NCBI RefSeq assembly: GCF_018263925.1 | Contig: NZ_JAEVHF010000011.1 | Coordinates: 66,119-98,118 of the forward strand | Reading direction: 5' to 3' | Length of the DNA: 32,000 nt | From: Kistimonas asteriae | Lineage (GTDB): Bacteria; Pseudomonadota; Gammaproteobacteria; Pseudomonadales; Endozoicomonadaceae | Shown here: piece after piece, positions 7,162-24,135 of the stretch | Layout: each line of letters starts with the position of its first letter | Numbering within the stretch: position 1 is the first letter of the stretch | Translations under genes and position numbers: made by a program | The notes under the pieces: model-generated | Databases searched by the model: none | Told to the model about the DNA's origin: nothing | The model's input: the letters and a program-made list of their open reading frames with translations, nothing else

Positions 7162-7944
7162 ATGCAAGCTATTGTCAGAATCTCTATCGCCATTGTCTTA
7201 CTGGCTTCATCTCTGCAGGCAAAGGTCATCGCTGCCGATGCTGCCACGCTGGACGATGCCATCAGCCTGCAGAAAGATACCCAGCAGCGCTCAGCCCATT
7301 CTCAGCAGGCGATCAACCGTCTGGATGATGATACCCGGCGCATGCTGGCAGAGTACCAGTCGCTTCAGGACGCCATTGATACCCTCCACCAGGAAAATCG
7401 TCACCTGGACAATCAACGTCGAAAAATTGCCCAAAAGCGCGCCTCGCTGGAAGCTGACATCCAAAAAACGACACAGCTGCTGGCTACGCTGCCATCCCTG
7501 AACCAACAGATTCATGAAATTTATGGCCATTTTATTGCCCTGGATCTCCCCTATCAGGGCAATCGCCGTGAACAGGAACATCGGTTTCTGGGTGAACTGT
7601 TGAACGACGCTGACCAGACACCGGTGGAAAACTATCTCGCACTTGTCCGTCAACTACGGGAAACAGCTGAACAGGGACTCCATATTCAACACTGGACCGG
7701 CAAACTGTCCGATAAGCGACAGGTCACCTTCTTCCGACTCGGTCACATTGCCCTGTATTACCTGACGCCTGATGGCGAGGAAGGCGGCATCTGGGATCGA
7801 ACCACAGAAACCTGGTCCACCCTGCCCATGGAAGACCGGCACAAACTGTCACGCGCTATCCGGGTAGCGGCCAAGCACGAGCCGGAAGGCTGGCTTGTCC
7901 TTCCGCTACCGACCCATCGTTCGCTACCGGAGGGTGATGCATGA
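7162..7944 (+). CDS. ttpB: DUF3450-family periplasmic coiled-coil protein, first gene of a TonB2-type cluster (TtpB-like)
   Basis: 260 aa with signal peptide MQAIVRISIAIVLLASSLQA and a long Q/L/R-rich helical region. C-terminal FFRLGHIALYYLTPDGEEGGIWD is typical of DUF3450. Its position and 4-nt overlap with the next gene match the Vibrio ttpB-ttpC-exbB2-exbD2-tonB2-ttpD layout. Confidence 0.75.
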   Translation: MQAIVRISIAIVLLASSLQAKVIAADAATLDDAISLQKDTQQRSAHSQQAINRLDDDTRRMLAEYQSLQDAIDTLHQENRHLDNQRRKIAQKRASLEADIQKTTQLLATLPSLNQQIHEIYGHFIALDLPYQGNRREQEHRFLGELLNDADQTPVENYLALVRQLRETAEQGLHIQHWTGKLSDKRQVTFFRLGHIALYYLTPDGEEGGIWDRTTETWSTLPMEDRHKLSRAIRVAAKHEPEGWLVLPLPTHRSLPEGDA

Positions 7945-14838: not shown

Positions 14839-15402
14839 ATGAACAAACAACGCTGCGAATGGTGCACGTCGGATCCACTGTATCAACACTACCATGATCA
14901 TGAATGGGGACGCCCTGTGCATGATGATCGCACGCTGTTTGAATTACTGATCCTTGAAGGGGCACAGGCAGGTCTCAACTGGCTGACGGTTCTGAAAAAA
15001 CGGGAAGGCTATCGGGCAGCATTTGATAATTTTGATGCTGAAAAGATCGCCCGTTATGATCAGGAAAAAATTGAAACACTGATGGCTGATAGCAACATTA
15101 TTCGTAACCGGCTGAAAATATTGTCAGCGATCAAAAATGCTCGCGCCTTTTTAACCATAGTTGATGAATTTGGCTCATTTAACGACTTCATGTGGCAATT
15201 TGTTAATTACGAACCTCGCCTGAACCATTGGAGTACTCAGGCGGAAGTCCCAGTCGTTTCACAAGAGTCAGAAACAATGAGTAAAAAATTGAAGAAGCAG
15301 GGATTCAGTTTTATTGGTCCAACAATCTGTTACGCCTATATGCAGTCCAGCGGTATGATAAACGACCATACTCAATACTGTTTTTTATACCATGGCAATT
15401 GA
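14839..15402 (+). CDS. tag: DNA-3-methyladenine glycosylase I
   Basis: I start at internal ATG 14839 (MNKQRCEWC...), giving 187 aa as in E. coli Tag. Matches: RC(E/G)W...DPLY..YHD.EWG.P, L(I/C)LEG.QAGL.W.TVLKKRE.YR, GPT(I)CY(A/S)(Y/F)MQ..G..NDH. The 24 extra N-terminal codons of track ORF 14767 have no counterpart. Confidence 0.92.
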   Translation: MNKQRCEWCTSDPLYQHYHDHEWGRPVHDDRTLFELLILEGAQAGLNWLTVLKKREGYRAAFDNFDAEKIARYDQEKIETLMADSNIIRNRLKILSAIKNARAFLTIVDEFGSFNDFMWQFVNYEPRLNHWSTQAEVPVVSQESETMSKKLKKQGFSFIGPTICYAYMQSSGMINDHTQYCFLYHGN

Positions 15403-15608
15403 AAAGAGGGCGTCACTGGTTATCCAGATAGCATTCTAGACATCAGAACTCTATATATCCCTAAAGATTAGACACAATAAAATAATTGCATTGAAAACTT
15501 GATTTGCATGCTAGCCATGCAATATAAATCATGTAAGTAGCATCAATATAATCCTCGTTTTCACGCAGCCAAACCCCAAAATAAATCCCTAAAAATTCAT
15601 CCTGCAAT

Positions 15609-15657
15609 CTGGCAATATCAACAGCATCACCTACACTCCAGCATCAAGTCGATATTG
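15609..15657. repeat. Conserved noncoding element, copy 1 (about 150-195 bp upstream of the secreted-protein gene)
   Basis: CTGGCAATATCAACAGCATCACCTACACTCCAGCATCAAGTCGATATTG versus copy 2 CTGGCAATATTAAAGCCATCACCTACACTCCTGCATCAAGCCAATGATA. The core CATCACCTACACTCC is identical in both. Flanking intergenic DNA is much less similar. Confidence 0.6.
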
Positions 15658-15802
15658 CGTGAAGTCTAGCCATATCGACTACACCAGCAGACTGCTTACT
15701 ATATACAAACCTCTCTTTTGGCATGGGTTGAATATAGAAAGCAAGCGGCTTGGGCACGTGCAATGGATTTTGTGTTAATACTGATATTGGGTGAGATGTA
15801 CC

Positions 15803-16264
15803 ATGAAGATAGTCCGACTATATCCCTTATTTTTTTTCTCGCTGCTTTTGGCCTTATTTTCAAATGCCCACGATGAGCCGATTGAAAAAAGTGCCAATCA
15901 CAATGACCGAACGCTAGTTCGCCGGGCAGATTTAGCAGAAATTTCAGTAAAATTTTTACCAGGCACTGCTTATTTGGCTTACATCTACGCACGCAACAGT
16001 GAAACTGGCGTTCTCCATAATTATGGAACTTATTATGTTAACTCGCACTGGCATACCTTTTTGCCCGTTGGCTCAAGGTTCAAGATCACTGTGCTCGGTG
16101 CAGGAAAGCACTGTCGCTTTTTCACTGTAGTCAATCCTACACACTCACAACTTGAGTTTTGGGGATCGTCAGACCATTCAAAATATGAACATGTTTCTGG
16201 TGATGCTGTAGTGCTTGATGATTTTTACACAACACACGCTGTTTATGGATGCCCTGATCCGTAA
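15803..16264 (+). CDS. Small secreted protein, unrecognised family, paralog 1 (two conserved Cys, C-terminal CPDP)
   Basis: 153 aa from ATG 15803; the track's GTG start at 15791 adds MRCT. GGGTGAG lies 7 nt upstream. Signal peptide MKIVRLYPLFFFSLLLALFSNA followed by HD. About half of the mature residues are identical to the downstream paralog. Confidence 0.7.
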   Translation: MKIVRLYPLFFFSLLLALFSNAHDEPIEKSANHNDRTLVRRADLAEISVKFLPGTAYLAYIYARNSETGVLHNYGTYYVNSHWHTFLPVGSRFKITVLGAGKHCRFFTVVNPTHSQLEFWGSSDHSKYEHVSGDAVVLDDFYTTHAVYGCPDP

Positions 16265-16304
16265 ATGGTTATACCAATCACGTGGATACTCTACAATAGC
16301 ACTC

Positions 16305-16334
16305 GAACAAACCTCACCTATGTGAGGTTTGTTC
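16305..16334 (+). terminator. Perfect 13-bp stem-loop downstream of paralog 1 (putative terminator, no U-tract)
   Basis: GAACAAACCTCAC (16305-16317), loop CTAT, GTGAGGTTTGTTC (16322-16334), 40 nt after the stop codon. The hairpin is followed by ATAGCAAG, so it is not a canonical intrinsic terminator. Confidence 0.45.
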
Positions 16335-16621
16335 ATAGCAAGAAAAAGTTATATCCTGCATTTTTTATAATCACATTTCATTCATGAAAAATCAAAAAAT
16401 AACAGACAGCTGTCATAAATTATGAAATAGATTTATGCAGGCAAAATTGAAGCTATCCCAGAAGATTCCTACCCGCACCACTCTCTTTAATTTTGCAAAA
16501 ACCCTTTAAACAAAAAAATTCATTTTTGGCAAACCACAATAAAACTCAAGATGCTTTTCCAGCATACAGCATAGTCACGAGCCTGTTTTTTGATATAGAC
16601 GCAGAAATTGCCTCCTCTCTT

Positions 16622-16670
16622 CTGGCAATATTAAAGCCATCACCTACACTCCTGCATCAAGCCAATGATA
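16622..16670. repeat. Conserved noncoding element, copy 2
   Basis: See copy 1. It sits at the same distance from the start codon of paralog 2. Confidence 0.6.
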
Positions 16671-16816
16671 TGAACATGGGACACATTGGCTATAGCAGCA
16701 TTGTGAATTGCACCATTCCAACCCTGTGATTTTCATCCGCATGGCGCGAATGATGCAAACAATAGACTGAACACATGCCGCGGGTTTTTAATCCCAAAAT
16801 TTGAGTGAGATGTACG

Positions 16817-17278
16817 ATGAAAACAAACCGATTATTTCTATTCTTTTTTTTCTCACTAAACATCGTTTTTTTTGCACACGCTAGCGAGGAAGATATTAAT
16901 GATGGTAATCACCACGCTTACAAGGTGTCCGGAAACCTCGATGACCGAGCAGAGGTTTCTGTCAAGTTTCTACCCGGTACGGGTTTTGTATCATGGATTC
17001 TTACTCGAAACAGTGAAACGGGTGTTTTAGATGACTATGGACGATTTTATGTTGATGACCATTGGACCGGGTATTTGCCAGAAGACTCACGCATTCTCAT
17101 CGCAATGCGGGGTAATGGCGTAAACTGTTATTATTTCAGAGTCGTCAAACCCACATTTGGCCATGTTGAGCTGGTAGGTGCATCTGGAAGTCCCAGTATT
17201 GAAGTTGCCGCAGGTGACGCGCTTGTTATAGAAAGGCTGTATAACACACACAGTGCGGCATGGTGCCCTGATCCGTAA
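16817..17278 (+). CDS. Small secreted protein, unrecognised family, paralog 2
   Basis: 153 aa from ATG 16817. Signal peptide MKTNRLFLFFFFSLNIVFFAHA followed by SE. Shares with paralog 1 the blocks AE(I/V)SVKFLPGT, RNSETGVL, YG..YV..HW, LP..SR, an internal Cys, and the terminal CPDP. Confidence 0.7.
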   Translation: MKTNRLFLFFFFSLNIVFFAHASEEDINDGNHHAYKVSGNLDDRAEVSVKFLPGTGFVSWILTRNSETGVLDDYGRFYVDDHWTGYLPEDSRILIAMRGNGVNCYYFRVVKPTFGHVELVGASGSPSIEVAAGDALVIERLYNTHSAAWCPDP

Positions 17279-17304
17279 ACGCATTGTCCTAAGGTTCACT
17301 TTTG

Positions 17305-17340
17305 GACGAACCGTAGGATTTTCCTTTCATACGGTTCGTC
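17305..17340. terminator. 11-bp perfect hairpin between convergent paralog 2 and parA
   Basis: GACGAACCGTA (17305-17315), 14-nt loop, TACGGTTCGTC (17330-17340). No clear U-tract on either strand. Confidence 0.4.
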
Positions 17341-17374
17341 ATTAATATGCATAAATGGACTCAATTATGATTTA

Positions 17375-18160
17375 TCAATCGACATTCTCAACGATACCAT
17401 CAAGACAGCAATGCAACGCTAGATATTGTCGTGATAGTTTGTGGTTAGGCGCTAAAAATACGAGGGGAGTACAAGCATAGTGTGACTCTCTCATTTTGAC
17501 TGACTGATTGAGATAGGTGGGTAAGACAGGGTACCCTTCCTCAATGAGTTCCTCTATCAGCTGAAGAGGCAGCTTAGCCTGTGGCTGAAACTGATTAACA
17601 ATAATCCCTTCAATCATCAATTTCTGGTTATGGTCTTCTTTTAGCTCCTGGATTTCCCCCAGAATACCGAACAAAGCCTGACGTGAAAACGCATCACAAT
17701 CAAAAGGAATCAAACAGCGTTCGGTAGCAATCAAGGCTGAGCGGGTATAGAAGTTCAACGCAGGTGCCGTATCAATGTAAATGCGGTCATACTTAGCCGA
17801 GAGACTCTTAAGAGCATCACGCAATTTGTATATTTTATGCTTACTTTCTAACTTATGCTGGAGTTCTTCCAGCTTCTGGCTGGCGGGCATAATATCCAGA
17901 CTTTCAAACGGTGTTCGATGGACAAAGTCTGTCGGCTCCTTGGCAAAGAGATTAAACGAAAGCGTCTGCTCAAAGAGGTCAGCGACCGTATTTTTTAATA
18001 CCTCCGCGCCTTTCCCCAACAGATAATGCGTTGCATTTCCCTGAGGATCTAAATCAACGACCAGGGTCTTCAAGCCTTCACTGGCACTAATTGCGGCCAG
18101 ATTACAAACAATGCTGGACTTTCCAACACCACCCTTTTGATTAAATATCACCCGCCGCAT
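17375..18160 (-). CDS. Orphan ParA/Soj/MinD-superfamily ATPase
   Basis: I start at the internal ATG (complement of 18158-18160), with AGGGGGA upstream, giving 261 aa. Deviant Walker [23 protein letters not shown], then [12 protein letters not shown] and [11 protein letters not shown]. No ParB-like gene is adjacent. Confidence 0.85.
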
Positions 18161-18357: not shown

Positions 18358-19143
18358 ATGCTGCCAACCAATGAGACGGAACCGTTTGCACCGCCACGCG
18401 AAACTGCCAACCTGTTACTGGATATTGCCATATTGCAGCTGCGGTGTGGTGCCCATACCGAACGGGTCAATCGTAACGTCAAACGGTTTGCACGTGCCCT
18501 GGGGTATGAACCAGAACTGTTCTTTTCCTTTTCCGGCGTCACACTGACCCTGCAAAATCAACAGCACACGATCACCCTGTTTCGTCGCGTCGAAACCCAC
18601 GGTATCAAATTAAGTGTTCTAGTCGGCATCAGCCGCCTTAGCTGGCGGGCACAGGAAGAAAAGCTGTCCATTGATGAAATCAGGGAAGAAGTCTATCGAC
18701 TCAAAGAAAGCCCTGCCTATCCATTTCCCCTGATTGTCGCACTGGTCTCCCTGGCCTGTGCCAGTCTGGCGCGTCTTTTCGGTGCGGATGCGTTAGTCAT
18801 GCTGACAACGGCCGTCGCCACCATGGCCGCGCTGGTTACACGTCATACCCTTCAGCAATGGGGATTCAATATTTTTCTTGTCATTGCCTGTTCCGCCTTT
18901 ATCGCTGTCACTGTCAGCGGCATGGGGGTTCATCTGGCAATAGGAAGCGTCCCTCATTTGGCCATAGCGACCTCGGTGCTTTTTCTTGTGCCCGGTGCAC
19001 CACTGATCAATGCTGTTATCGACCAGATCAATGGCCATATTCTGGTGGGTGTTGCCCGGGGCATCATGGGCACGGTGATCGCTTTCGCCATAGCGCTCGG
19101 CATGCTGGTAGCGCTTAACCTGCAGGGACTCGGACAACCATGA
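18358..19143 (+). CDS. yjjP: Threonine/serine exporter family protein (ThrE / YjjP-like, DUF1212)
   Basis: 261 aa. The soluble N-terminal region (LLLDIAILQLRCGAHTERVNRNVKRFARALGY) is followed by several TM helices. A 4-nt ATGA overlap links it to a YjjB-like partner, as in the E. coli yjjP-yjjB pair. Confidence 0.75.
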   Translation: MLPTNETEPFAPPRETANLLLDIAILQLRCGAHTERVNRNVKRFARALGYEPELFFSFSGVTLTLQNQQHTITLFRRVETHGIKLSVLVGISRLSWRAQEEKLSIDEIREEVYRLKESPAYPFPLIVALVSLACASLARLFGADALVMLTTAVATMAALVTRHTLQQWGFNIFLVIACSAFIAVTVSGMGVHLAIGSVPHLAIATSVLFLVPGAPLINAVIDQINGHILVGVARGIMGTVIAFAIALGMLVALNLQGLGQP

Positions 19144-21445: not shown

Positions 21446-21835
21446 CCAAGACGCTCCTGTTACTTGTGTCTATCCTGTTGGGCAGCACACCATGCTGCAA
21501 GGGCTCAATGATGGCGTGGCAATCATACTGGAAAACAGCGGTCTGAGCCAAAGTGATAGCCATGTGGCCGGTCGTTTTTCCTAGTCTGCGATATTTGACA
21601 ACGGCCTGAACAGAAATATCCTTCTCGCCCGCAGAAATAGCTGAAAACCTTCATGTCCGGAATACACCGAATGATATAACCGGATTCTCACTCAGATGCA
21701 TTGATCGTTGATTTGACAGACAGGGAGCAAGCTTCTATTTCTTTCTCTGTCCTTTCAGCGGAGGGCTGAAATAAAGTCGTTTCTTTTTCAAAAAGGCCTT
21801 CACTGGATTCCCTGTATCCACTGGTGGATGTTGTC

Positions 21836-23035
21836 ATGATTAAATGCGCTGCACGTTTTCTGGTTCTTTGCTGTCTTGTTTCGGCCTCCTACAGTACGGC
21901 CTCAACATCCTCTTTTAACTGCGATTCATTTCTCAGCCAGCCTATCGAAAAACAGCGAGCGGAATTCACAAAAGCCAGGGACTTATTCATCCGGAATTTC
22001 AGCCAGATAAAAGACGTCGATAATTCTGCCTGGGAGCTTACCAGGCTCCTTCAACAAAAGCGTTTTGACCCGGATATTGAAAAAGGCATCTATCTGGCCC
22101 ACCTTCCTGGCCACCTGCTGAATTACAACGAAAATATAGACACCATTTTTTTAAAAAACCTGCAACAAGCCATCAACAATCTTGAAGACATCGGTAAATG
22201 TTTCCATTACCGAAAAAATAATACTAAAAAGAAAAACCCATTAATGGCGCTAAAACTCTATGAGAATGACAGTGCCCAATCCCAGGATGATGTTTCTCAT
22301 ATTTTCTTTGGCTATACCACCTCTGCAATGCAACAGGGAAATGCTATAAAAGTTGCCCGGGGTGCCGACACCAGAGAATGCTCATTAGCAAATTGTGTTT
22401 TCAAAAACATTCCTATTGAAAAGGCCCGTGAGTTTGTAAAATCCCATACGGTCATCCGCCTTGTTCATAGCCCGGTCGAGCTTCAACGCATACAGGCTAA
22501 TGCCCAGGCACAACCCCATGAAAAACAATTACCGGCCAAAAGCTGGCTGACCGGCGTCAAGCTTTATAAAACCGGGGAGATATTTACCAGTCCTGAAATT
22601 TACGTCAACATTGGTTACTATGCAGGAGAACAGCTGATTGGCAAAAATGTCCTGCAATTACCCTGGGTTACCAAGAAAGGCATGAACCGTGGCAACACCT
22701 TGCTACTCGACTGGCCCATCGGCAGTGACAAAGCCAAGGTCGTCGTCATGGAAAGTGACGTCGATATTCCCTATGACGTGATGCTGGATGCAGCCTTTGG
22801 TATTGGAAAATATTTTACTGACGAAACCTCAACAACCGGTTCTTTGCTGAGCAGTCTACACAGCGCTATTTCCGGCTGGTTCAGTGGTACGGGCTGGGGG
22901 GAAGATGACTACATCGGAACCGTTGTGATTGACCGGAATGCGCAGATGCCTGAAATCGCTACGGATGAAGGTTCTGCCATATTGCAACTCCGCCATGAAG
23001 TCACCGCGAAACGTTATCCTGTCTATGGTCAATAG
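21836..23035 (+). CDS. Secreted protein of unknown function (orphan, AT-rich islet 2)
   Basis: 399 aa from ATG 21836; the track's GTG start at 21824 adds MDVV. N-terminal signal peptide MIKCAARFLVLCCLVSASYSTAS. I find no motif I can assign. A strong bidirectional terminator follows the gene. Confidence 0.65.
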   Translation: MIKCAARFLVLCCLVSASYSTASTSSFNCDSFLSQPIEKQRAEFTKARDLFIRNFSQIKDVDNSAWELTRLLQQKRFDPDIEKGIYLAHLPGHLLNYNENIDTIFLKNLQQAINNLEDIGKCFHYRKNNTKKKNPLMALKLYENDSAQSQDDVSHIFFGYTTSAMQQGNAIKVARGADTRECSLANCVFKNIPIEKAREFVKSHTVIRLVHSPVELQRIQANAQAQPHEKQLPAKSWLTGVKLYKTGEIFTSPEIYVNIGYYAGEQLIGKNVLQLPWVTKKGMNRGNTLLLDWPIGSDKAKVVVMESDVDIPYDVMLDAAFGIGKYFTDETSTTGSLLSSLHSAISGWFSGTGWGEDDYIGTVVIDRNAQMPEIATDEGSAILQLRHEVTAKRYPVYGQ

Positions 23036-23126: not shown

Positions 23127-23945
23127 TTAAGCAGCAGATGCAGCTTCAAAGAACGCTTTCATCCTTTCAACATGTCCTTTAAAACTCTCATTGCCCTTGG
23201 TCTTAGATACTGTCAGATGCTTGCTGACAGCTTCTTTGACTGGAACTTCAGAAACCGTACGCTCTGACGCAGTTTCATTTTCCATCTGCTCCAAGAAATC
23301 GACATCTTCGACACTATCAATAAAAAGGTCAAAATCTTTAATAGCATTTTGTGCACGCGCTCTTGCATCAAATACTGCGACTTCATCTTCCATAGTGAAT
23401 TCATCATCAGTAATAGCATCTTCAGCATCGTCGAGATCAAGATCAAAAGCCAGTGCGTAATACCCATGTGTCAATGGCATTTTCATGGCATCAACTGTTG
23501 CTGTTACTGATAAATCTTCTTTATAGTCACTACATTGTGACGAGCCGGCTTCTTTTGAATAATGCTTCAGATCAATCTCCGCCTTCTCAGCATCTTCTTT
23601 TAACTCACGCTCAAGCTTATCGACTTCTTCTGTGATAGTATCCCACGTAACCCAACTTGATTTACTTCCCCCGGGATGAGAAAAGTCATTATTTTCGACA
23701 GCTACAGAGCGACTTGTGAGATTTAGATCCATATCACACTCATCACCAGCAGAGACAGTACGCTTTTCAAGTGACGGTGCAACTTTATCAAATTTCAACG
23801 CCATTGCTAAAACAGAACCCACACTTACTGGAGTTAAGTATCTACCATTTAGTTCACCCTTAACTTCAGGCTTCGCACTAACAGCACTATCATAAGCCTT
23901 AAAGATAGAAAGCTTTTCTTTAAAATTAAGATTTTCTATACTCAT
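23127..23945 (-). CDS. Highly acidic cytoplasmic protein of unknown function (orphan)
   Basis: I start at the internal ATG (complement of 23943-23945), which is preceded by GAAGGAGGAATTCCG, giving 272 aa (MSIENLNFKEKLSIF...). No signal peptide. Long D/E-rich runs such as DLDLDDAEDAITDDEFTMEDE. The 58 upstream codons of track ORF 24119 have no RBS and look like read-through of AT-rich DNA. Confidence 0.6.
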   Translation of the reverse strand: MSIENLNFKEKLSIFKAYDSAVSAKPEVKGELNGRYLTPVSVGSVLAMALKFDKVAPSLEKRTVSAGDECDMDLNLTSRSVAVENNDFSHPGGSKSSWVTWDTITEEVDKLERELKEDAEKAEIDLKHYSKEAGSSQCSDYKEDLSVTATVDAMKMPLTHGYYALAFDLDLDDAEDAITDDEFTMEDEVAVFDARARAQNAIKDFDLFIDSVEDVDFLEQMENETASERTVSEVPVKEAVSKHLTVSKTKGNESFKGHVERMKAFFEAASAA

Positions 23946-24135
23946 CGGAATTCCTCCTTCATTATTGTGAGTTAAAGATACCCTAGCTATTGAAACAGAG
24001 AAATTAGACCAACGCTCAATAGTGCAAACAGCTATAATAATTAACTGATTAATTTCCCTATTAAATATTGCTACAACACCAAAATTGATTGAATACCGGT
24101 TAGACGCAAACGTTATCAACTAGATCTTCTATATA

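Follow-up and report, generated by a model that had tools for sequence, protein, structure and literature searches.

A tandem pair of old, strongly constrained paralogues from a rare family of putatively exported small proteins, with a conserved upstream leader, between tag and parA of Kistimonas asteriae

The inhibitors Ivy, MliC/PliC, PliI, PliG and ecotin are Sec-exported, beta-rich proteins from host-associated bacteria, and are comparable in size to the two proteins described here. The transthyretin/HIUase family (PF00576, including the periplasmic YedX/HiuH of Escherichia coli) is an all-beta sandwich of about 110 residues with some periplasmic bacterial members, and HIUases have conserved catalytic His and Arg residues and a C-terminal Tyr-Arg-Gly-Ser motif, while domain 4 of the cholesterol-dependent cytolysins (PF17440; perfringolysin O, intermedilysin) is an extracellular binding module. 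At the level of the transcript, the ompA mRNA of E. coli has a long structured 5' untranslated region with a stabilising stem-loop at its 5' end. Few bacterial partners of corals, molluscs, echinoderms and fishes are as widespread as the Endozoicomonadaceae, which are occasionally also pathogens of these animals, and to our knowledge few host-interaction factors of the family are known. Here we describe a stretch of 32,000 nucleotides (nt) from Kistimonas asteriae (contig NZ_JAEVHF010000011.1, positions 66,119–98,118), called the window below, in which two genes, copy A and copy B, are located in tandem between tag and parA. Both are real, old and strongly constrained, they belong to a family without a model or a literature, and each is preceded by the same conserved upstream module. 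Bacteria of the genus Kistimonas live in association with echinoderms, bivalves and annelids, and are sometimes suspected of being pathogenic to them (PMC12491435).

Both coding sequences (CDSs) comprise 153 amino acids (aa), equal in length as read in a first-pass annotation of this DNA, and the two ATG codons are 1014 base pairs (bp) apart. The products align without gaps in BLASTP with 68/153 identical residues (44%, E 5e-43), and from AE(I/V)SVKF to the C terminus 53 residues are identical, which is the number counted by hand in that annotation, over 109 positions and not the 108 given there. Copy B is a 100% match to K. asteriae WP_211828970.1, annotated as 'hypothetical protein'. Cys104 and Cys150 are the only cysteines of each protein, and the pair noted between the two copies is kept across 17 family members including distant ones, with C150 invariant and C104 at least 90% conserved.

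Related loci were recovered by a Tag-anchored scan of species-representative genomes, giving four, namely K. scapharcae JCM 17805, two uncultured Kistimonas metagenome-assembled genomes (MAGs) and 'Oceanospirillales bacterium LUC14_002_19_P2', which we take to be the Kistimonas-like MAG from the gills of the lucinid Phacoides pectinatus (PMC6461927). Copy A is followed by copy B between tag and parA in all four loci and in one further metagenomic contig found by tblastn, and the wider gene order is identical in each, exbB-exbD-tonB-TPR-hrpB-tag-A-B-parA-thrE-mgsA-pfk, where TPR stands for tetratricopeptide repeat. The ratio of nonsynonymous to synonymous substitution (dN/dS), calculated by the method of Nei and Gojobori between orthologues, is 0.02–0.13 for copy A and 0.05–0.18 for copy B, with 0.22 in one nearly identical pair, at dS values between 0.2 and more than 2. 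Purifying selection acts strongly on both copies, A being the more constrained. Since dN/dS is well below 1 (a value near 1, together with a lack of homologues and of transcription, had been named beforehand as a sign of spurious reading frames), spurious open reading frames (ORFs) are ruled out, and both copies are real genes that are not decaying. Within one genome the proportion of synonymous differences between A and B (pS) is 0.67–0.80, which is saturated, and dN is about 0.48–0.63. The duplication is old and predates the divergence of the Kistimonas lineages, and the first-pass reading of two functional, long-diverged paralogues is borne out by the low dN/dS, the saturated pS and a tandem kept in at least five other genomes.

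The duplicated unit begins about 195 nt 5' of each ATG with a module that was absent from the first-pass annotation, and this block is better conserved than the CDSs, both across the paralogues and across six or more genomes. When the window is compared with the lucinid MAG, the leader of copy A shows an identity of 0.88 against 0.77 for the CDS, 0.52 for third codon positions and 0.52 for the next 200 nt upstream. The overall range is 0.86–0.88 for the leader against 0.52–0.53 for third codon positions, and for A against B the values are 0.59–0.64 and 0.35–0.42 respectively. A direct repeat, D1, at 15592–15653 and 16605–16666 is 77% identical. With an nhmmer profile the block was found only 5' of A- and B-type genes, including those of the distant loci L086 and L091; it is absent, by nhmmer and by eye, upstream of a third paralogue (locus L090) and of distant homologues, and none was found elsewhere in the window. 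A search of Rfam gave no match to the leader, the hits in the window being at chance level (E 1.7–6) and none of them in the leader.

Each module starts with a candidate σ70-type promoter, whose hexamers were picked by eye from alignments of 14 leaders. The hexamers and their 17–18 nt spacing are kept in 14/14 leaders; the -10 varies solely as TA[C/A/T]ACT, the -35 is CTGGCA except in L091 where it is CTAACA, and the sequence of the spacer is altered in the most divergent copy. Transcription should start near positions 15643 (A) and 16656 (B), if these promoters are placed correctly. In front of the ATG, GTGAGA is invariant in 14/14 leaders. GGUGA is complementary to the 3' end of 16S rRNA. 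A σ54 promoter in TGGCAA-N5 was considered and dropped, as neither the GG-to-GC spacing nor the -12 element is conserved among A, B and L086, and a conserved upstream ORF in the leader was dropped as well, since A and B have different short ORFs there. The invariant -35 core of the leader (CTGCAATCTGGCAATATC) is matched at four places in the window, where 0.44 would be expected, and the leaders account for two of them. The others are an 18-nt reverse-complement match of 94% on the minus strand at 18421–18438 in thrE and a match of 12/14 on the plus strand at 18933–18946 in the ThrE-family gene, and these may be due to chance or be a shared protein-binding site.

Hairpin P1 lies a few nucleotides downstream of the predicted start. 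From copy A to copy B one U-A pair is replaced by C-G and one G-C pair by A-U, and the arms are altered again in L086 and L091. Over the 14 sequences 94.8% of the cells are paired, against 18–46% with slid partners, compensatory changes are present in 4/6 core pairs, and 0/500 shuffles reach the observed score, while six cells keep pairing through G-U. This pattern favours a hairpin formed in the sense-strand RNA rather than a DNA operator. We also weighed the upstream block as a double-stranded DNA promoter with operators for a dedicated transcription factor, P1 being a palindromic operator, which would suit the overlap of the most invariant stretch (TCTGGCAATAT...CATCACCTACACTCC) with the candidate -35 and -10 regions and the unexceptional folding energy of the leader. 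We find it unlikely, as the compensatory changes in the P1 arms would alter the sequence recognised by a protein, cells that pair by G-U only are meaningless in duplex DNA, and the conserved stretch continues past the candidate -10 for some 160 nt, up to the ATG. The leader is a candidate new cis-regulatory RNA motif. When A-group and B-group leaders were folded separately, both groups gave the same predicted layout, with a helix P0 (5' GCAUC with GAUGU), P1 and a long second hairpin, P2, and the GAUGU of P0 is located between the Shine-Dalgarno-like GGUGA and the AUG.

At the other end of the units, copy A is followed by a terminator-type hairpin that the orthologous loci preserve, with compensatory changes, and that precedes a T-run in L003, one of the two loci of the lucinid-MAG lineage (L003 and L006). 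Copy B and parA converge on a further hairpin, which both of these loci retain, again with compensatory changes, and which is probably a terminator common to the two genes.

The N termini have the look of signal peptides with AxA-like cleavage sites, as had been suggested, with a K/R n-region and a hydrophobic core of 12 residues with a mean Kyte-Doolittle value of about 2.5. Copy A begins with MKIVR and LFFFSLLLALFS, then SNA with HD after the expected cut, and copy B with MKTNR and LFLFFFFSLNIV, then AHA with SE after it. By inspection both carry a basic n-region, an h-region 10 or more residues long, small residues at -3 and -1 and no lipobox Cys, residue 104 being the first Cys in either copy, and the proteins are therefore putative Sec substrates that signal peptidase I would cleave near residue 22. 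Mature copy A should then have 131 aa, 14.8 kDa, an isoelectric point (pI) of 6.4 and 10 His, and mature copy B 14.5 kDa, a pI of 4.8 and 5 His. Copy A of the lucinid-MAG lineage (L003 3664–4191, L006 8007–8531) carries a 22-residue insertion in the linker, giving 175 aa against 153, which fits a linker that serves as a tolerant spacer.

AlphaFold2 models were built from the shallow family alignments, one per paralogue. The mean predicted local distance difference test (pLDDT) score is 79 for A and 84 for B; within the domain almost every block of 10 residues scores 86–96, and values exceed 90 over most of residues 44–153. In the models disorder is confined to the N-terminal part, made up of the signal peptide and a roughly 20-residue linker, and nine beta strands and a well-ordered C-terminal tail come next, so that the beta-rich domain expected by the first-pass annotation appears in both copies as a confidently predicted nine-strand beta-sandwich. 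The co-conservation of the cysteines and the ordered tail suggest that a Cys104–Cys150 disulfide probably staples the CPDP tail to strand 6. Foldseek searches of the Protein Data Bank (PDB) with both models returned cytolysin domain 4 (best E 5e-4), transthyretin/HIUase, the pVHL beta domain, PUD-1/PUD-2, TssJ and CueP, which are generic neighbours and give no confident match to a characterised family; a search of BFVD structures gave only uncharacterised giant-virus and phage proteins, equally weak.

No recognised family had been seen for these proteins at first, and this was upheld by the searches. Neither A, B nor any of the 17 family members has a Pfam match at E up to 1; NCBIfam, PHROGs and PADLOC gave no match, and a sequence-profile search of the PDB gave TIM21 alone (E about 1). 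A word-indexed search of 5.8 billion proteins found three matches per paralogue (3 + 3), and when 1.84 billion cluster representatives were searched with a HMMER profile, 12 clusters were found, among them a probably spurious one (P0014, a repeat protein of 552 aa). Genuine members are 124–203 aa long, nearly all with a signal peptide at the start and both cysteines kept, and all that can be placed are from the Endozoicomonadaceae. The named ones are 'hypothetical protein' of K. asteriae, K. scapharcae and Endozoicomonas sp. (MDT0253490.1), no mention of the protein accessions was found in the literature, and scans of Joint Genome Institute (JGI) metagenomes with the leader DNA pattern and by protein alignment gave nothing. 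The proteins are thus already in the databases as unnamed hypotheticals, and the family is without a model or a literature. The only invariant or near-invariant columns in the 17 members are F51, T55, I61, G75, L87, P88, S91, C104, F107 and C150, which are structural residues (hydrophobic core, Gly/Pro and the two Cys) and not a catalytic or metal-binding set.

The third paralogue of Kistimonas (K. asteriae WP_211829544.1, K. scapharcae WP_345196533.1 and Kistimonas MAG L090 5001–5459) is more divergent, about 43% identical to A, and is encoded elsewhere in the genome, with a GntR/FCD regulator gene on one side and an EamA transporter gene on the other. In a 3.2-Mb AT-rich genome, three or four copies are found among several small genes on both strands between lepA and rseC (L084 6097–8525), where two family members are confirmed (P0015 and P0017), a copy at about 7475–7940 is apparently stop-interrupted by a frameshift or a sequencing error, and a neighbouring gene encodes 170 aa. 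A distant member, P0016 (L085 453–9045), has an 1817-aa invasin/intimin-type protein on one side and an 857-aa Beta_helix/SdrD_B protein on the other; the former carries IAT_beta, Big_1 and Invasin_D3 repeats and is the sole context hinting at adhesion. Another distant copy is found amid ankyrin, RING-like and ricin-lectin genes together with IS66 and reverse-transcriptase genes, a distant A-type gene adjoins flagellar export genes, a distant B-type gene adjoins pfk, and one distant member follows a CusB/RND efflux pair that does not recur elsewhere.

We consider it fairly probable that the locus is an identically wired gene pair encoding exported, disulfide-bonded beta-sandwich binding modules that act jointly at the envelope or host interface. 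The account starts from what is directly supported, real genes, an old duplication, a rare family, a predicted beta-sandwich and a conserved leader with one covarying hairpin, and adds to it export, the disulfide, the position of the promoters, joint action and a binding role, which we infer. There would be two autonomous transcription units, each with a weak σ70-type promoter, a structured leader of about 160 nt, the CDS and its own terminator, and each giving a Sec-exported protein of about 14.5 kDa. Cleavage by signal peptidase I near residue 22 would leave a flexible linker of about 20 residues and the nine-strand sandwich, and in the periplasm the Cys104–Cys150 disulfide would hold the CPDP tail to strand 6. 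Because the regulatory module is the same and the genes are retained side by side under purifying selection, it is most likely that a single signal governs A and B and that the two work jointly, either in the same pathway or as a hetero-oligomer. A role as non-enzymatic extracytoplasmic binding modules at the cell envelope or the host interface is suggested by the invariance of structural residues only, by weak structural neighbours that are binding modules, and by the occurrence solely in marine-animal-associated bacteria of the Endozoicomonadaceae type.

Several observations weigh against this account. The promoter hexamers score 8/12 against the consensus, below the scan threshold of 9/12. 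Apart from P1 most of the predicted leader pairs never vary, and the minimum free energy of the leaders is no better than that of shuffles (z -0.66 and -0.33), so that P1 alone is solid in the leader structure. The Foldseek neighbours are weak (E 5e-4 to 2e-2, TM score 0.3–0.5, root mean square deviation (rmsd) 4.5–8 Å, about 10% identity) and identify a common class of beta-sandwich in the models, not a family or a function. Finally, no neighbouring gene recurs across lineages, and the context therefore yields no functional partner. A more elaborate version, to which we give little credence, would have a leader RNA responsive to a ligand, temperature, a small RNA or a protein, with its 5' end pairing to the nucleotides that separate the ribosome-binding site from the AUG, and co-controlling a symbiosis-specific secreted heterodimer whose beta-sandwich docks, as cytolysin domain 4 does, to membranes or glycans of the host. 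If true, it would represent a new host-interaction module specific to the Endozoicomonadaceae.

Other functions were weighed against that of a jointly acting binding pair, and what speaks for them is of the order of fold class or ecology. Periplasmic inhibitors of host hydrolases, of the kind of Ivy, MliC/PliC, PliI/PliG and ecotin, might be directed against invertebrate immune enzymes, the two paralogues possibly having two targets, and such a role would be in line with small beta-rich proteins with a signal peptide and one conserved Cys pair, with a family confined to animal-associated bacteria, and with the high expression of host lysozyme transcripts in the lucinid gill carrying a Kistimonas-like bacterium (PMC6461927). 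It is nevertheless rather improbable, since inhibitor families give no Pfam or NCBIfam match at E up to 1 and none is among the top 50 Foldseek PDB hits of either model, and since no exposed loop motif of a known type is evident, TR(N/D)(S/G)E being the sole semi-conserved loop. Very unlikely, too, are periplasmic binders of metals or small molecules that have a fold of the transthyretin or CueP type and would serve, for instance, to chaperone or buffer a metal or a metabolite. Transthyretin/HIUase with E. coli YedX (TM score 0.40–0.49) and Salmonella CueP (0.30–0.32) are near both models and copy A is His-rich with its 10 His in 131 mature residues, but the family has no invariant His, Met, Asp or Glu, copy B has five His only, PF00576 gives no match, and the C terminus is CPDP and not the Tyr-Arg-Gly-Ser of HIUases, while the CusB/RND neighbour belongs to a single distant member. 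Slightly less likely still are stand-alone modules akin to cytolysin domain 4 that target membranes or glycans and dock to host membranes. Among the Foldseek PDB hits of copy A, those to domain 4 rank first and outnumber the others (E 5e-4, probability 1.0), domain 4 is also found with B, and some relatives adjoin adhesin or invasin genes, but the superposition is poor (TM score 0.3–0.5, rmsd 5–8 Å, about 10% identity), PF17440 does not match, no Trp-rich loop like the undecapeptide is present, and no pore-forming domains are attached or adjacent.

The region between tag and parA, described in the first-pass annotation as an AT-rich islet without integrase or transposase, has indeed a guanine-plus-cytosine content (GC) of 0.406 against 0.513 for the whole window, and Kistimonas genomes range from 51.3 to 57.5% (PMC12491435). 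The low GC is not confined to the islet, as tag and parA are low too (Table 1), and further low-GC patches occur in the window at 6.0–7.2 kb (the ompW gene) and 21.6–24.4 kb. No integrase or transposase ORF, tRNA or flanking direct repeat was found at the islet, so that only the deviant composition, shared with tag and parA, resembles a mobile island, and tblastn found no plasmid or phage homologues. The proposed comparison of the tag–parA junction in relatives shows an islet that is old and syntenic and not a recent insertion: an insertion is not demonstrable, because the islet is syntenic across lineages with saturated synonymous sites, carries no mobility genes and has a low GC that reaches tag and parA. 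The pair is present in 5/5 related genomes recovered, and no relative with an empty site was found in this search, which was anchored on tag itself. A recent foreign insertion, or ORFs spurious in AT-rich DNA, is hardly credible, for although the composition deviates and tag has no close relative outside the clade, the position is shared by genomes with saturated synonymous sites (dS 1.1 to above 2), and that synteny together with a dN/dS well below 1 refutes both 'recent' and 'spurious'.

Tag itself is 80–91% identical within the Kistimonas clade, and its next-best matches among 185,579 species genomes are 64–65% identical and belong to Calditrichaceae and KSB1, with no other Endozoicomonadaceae. 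Since these next-best relatives are in unrelated phyla, the entire tag-to-parA block may be an ancient acquisition.

Table 1. Features of the tag–parA region of the window. Positions are those of the window; promoters, hairpins and protein regions are predicted.
Feature	Position	Strand	Details
tag (3-methyladenine DNA glycosylase I), left flank	14839–15402	+	PF03352, E 6e-82; GC 0.43
Upstream module, copy A	15608–15802	+	promoter and leader of about 160 nt
Candidate σ70-type promoter A	15609–15637	+	CTGGCA 15609–15614, 17-nt spacer, TACACT 15632–15637
Hairpin P1, copy A	15647–15680	+	arms AGTCGATAT / ATATCGACT, 16-nt loop
Shine-Dalgarno-like GGGTGA	15789–15794	+	8 nt before ATG 15803
Copy A CDS	15803–16264	+	153 aa, ATG 15803; ORF 15791–16264
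Terminator-type hairpin after copy A	16305–16334	+	13-bp stem, CTAT loop
Upstream module, copy B	16621–16816	+	
Candidate σ70-type promoter B	16622–16650	+	CTGGCA 16622–16627, 17-nt spacer, TACACT 16645–16650
Hairpin P1, copy B	16660–16691	+	arms AGCCAATG / CATTGGCT
Copy B CDS	16817–17278	+	153 aa, ATG 16817; ORF 16805–17278
Hairpin between convergent copy B and parA	17305–17340	.	14-nt arms, 8-nt loop
Orphan ParA-like ATPase (parA), right flank	17375–18160	-	PF13614, E 1e-35; GC 0.45
Protein architecture, copies A and B			signal peptide, residues 1–22; disordered linker, 23–43; beta-sandwich domain, 44–153

The low-GC patch downstream of pfk (GC 0.39–0.45) contains two genes, one at 21824–23035 on the plus strand for a 403-aa protein with an apparent signal peptide at its start (MIKCAARFLVLCCLVSASYSTA), and one at 23127–24119 on the minus strand for a 330-aa acidic protein, both without a Pfam match. 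Genes of similar size and without Pfam hits are found at the same position after pfk in loci L001–L003.

The pair between tag and parA is lineage-restricted, strongly constrained and putatively exported, with a dedicated leader, and is a concrete candidate for studies of host interaction, K. asteriae and K. scapharcae being cultivable. The family merits a database entry, as there is currently no Pfam or NCBIfam model. On the present evidence it is another orphan family of small secreted proteins, which leaves the established picture unchanged and should not surprise a specialist.

Compared with the described systems, the transthyretin fold is a weak neighbour of both models, at TM scores of 0.40–0.49 and E values of 2e-3 to 2e-2; the models have nine strands against its eight, and the proteins have no PF00576 profile match, no invariant His or Arg in the family and a (G/W)CPDP C terminus in place of an end of the YRGS type. 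We know of no conserved disulfide to a C-terminal CPDP tail in the transthyretin/HIUase family, such as the proteins here would have. Cytolysin domain 4 is a beta-sandwich of similar size and heads the Foldseek PDB hits (E 5e-4 to 1e-2, TM score 0.3–0.5, rmsd 4.5–8.8 Å), whereas the mature protein here would be a stand-alone unit of 131 aa without domains 1–3, no MACPF/CDC gene is found nearby, and the family alignment contains no segment like ECTGLAWEWWR. Unlike the periplasmic inhibitor families, which they resemble in size and predicted export, the proteins share no profile, motif or top-50 structural match with them. The proteins are thus not members of the transthyretin/HIUase, cytolysin domain 4 or known inhibitor families, as the defining profile, motif or architecture of each is lacking, and their closest likeness in presumed mode of action is to small exported binding modules with a beta-sandwich fold. 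The leader, with its hairpin close to the predicted 5' end and in front of a gene for a putatively exported protein, is analogous to that of ompA, to which it has no sequence or Rfam relationship. The pair from Kistimonas represents a new sequence family within a familiar kind, the small, secreted, disulfide-bonded beta-sandwich proteins of host-associated bacteria, to which a candidate RNA leader is added.

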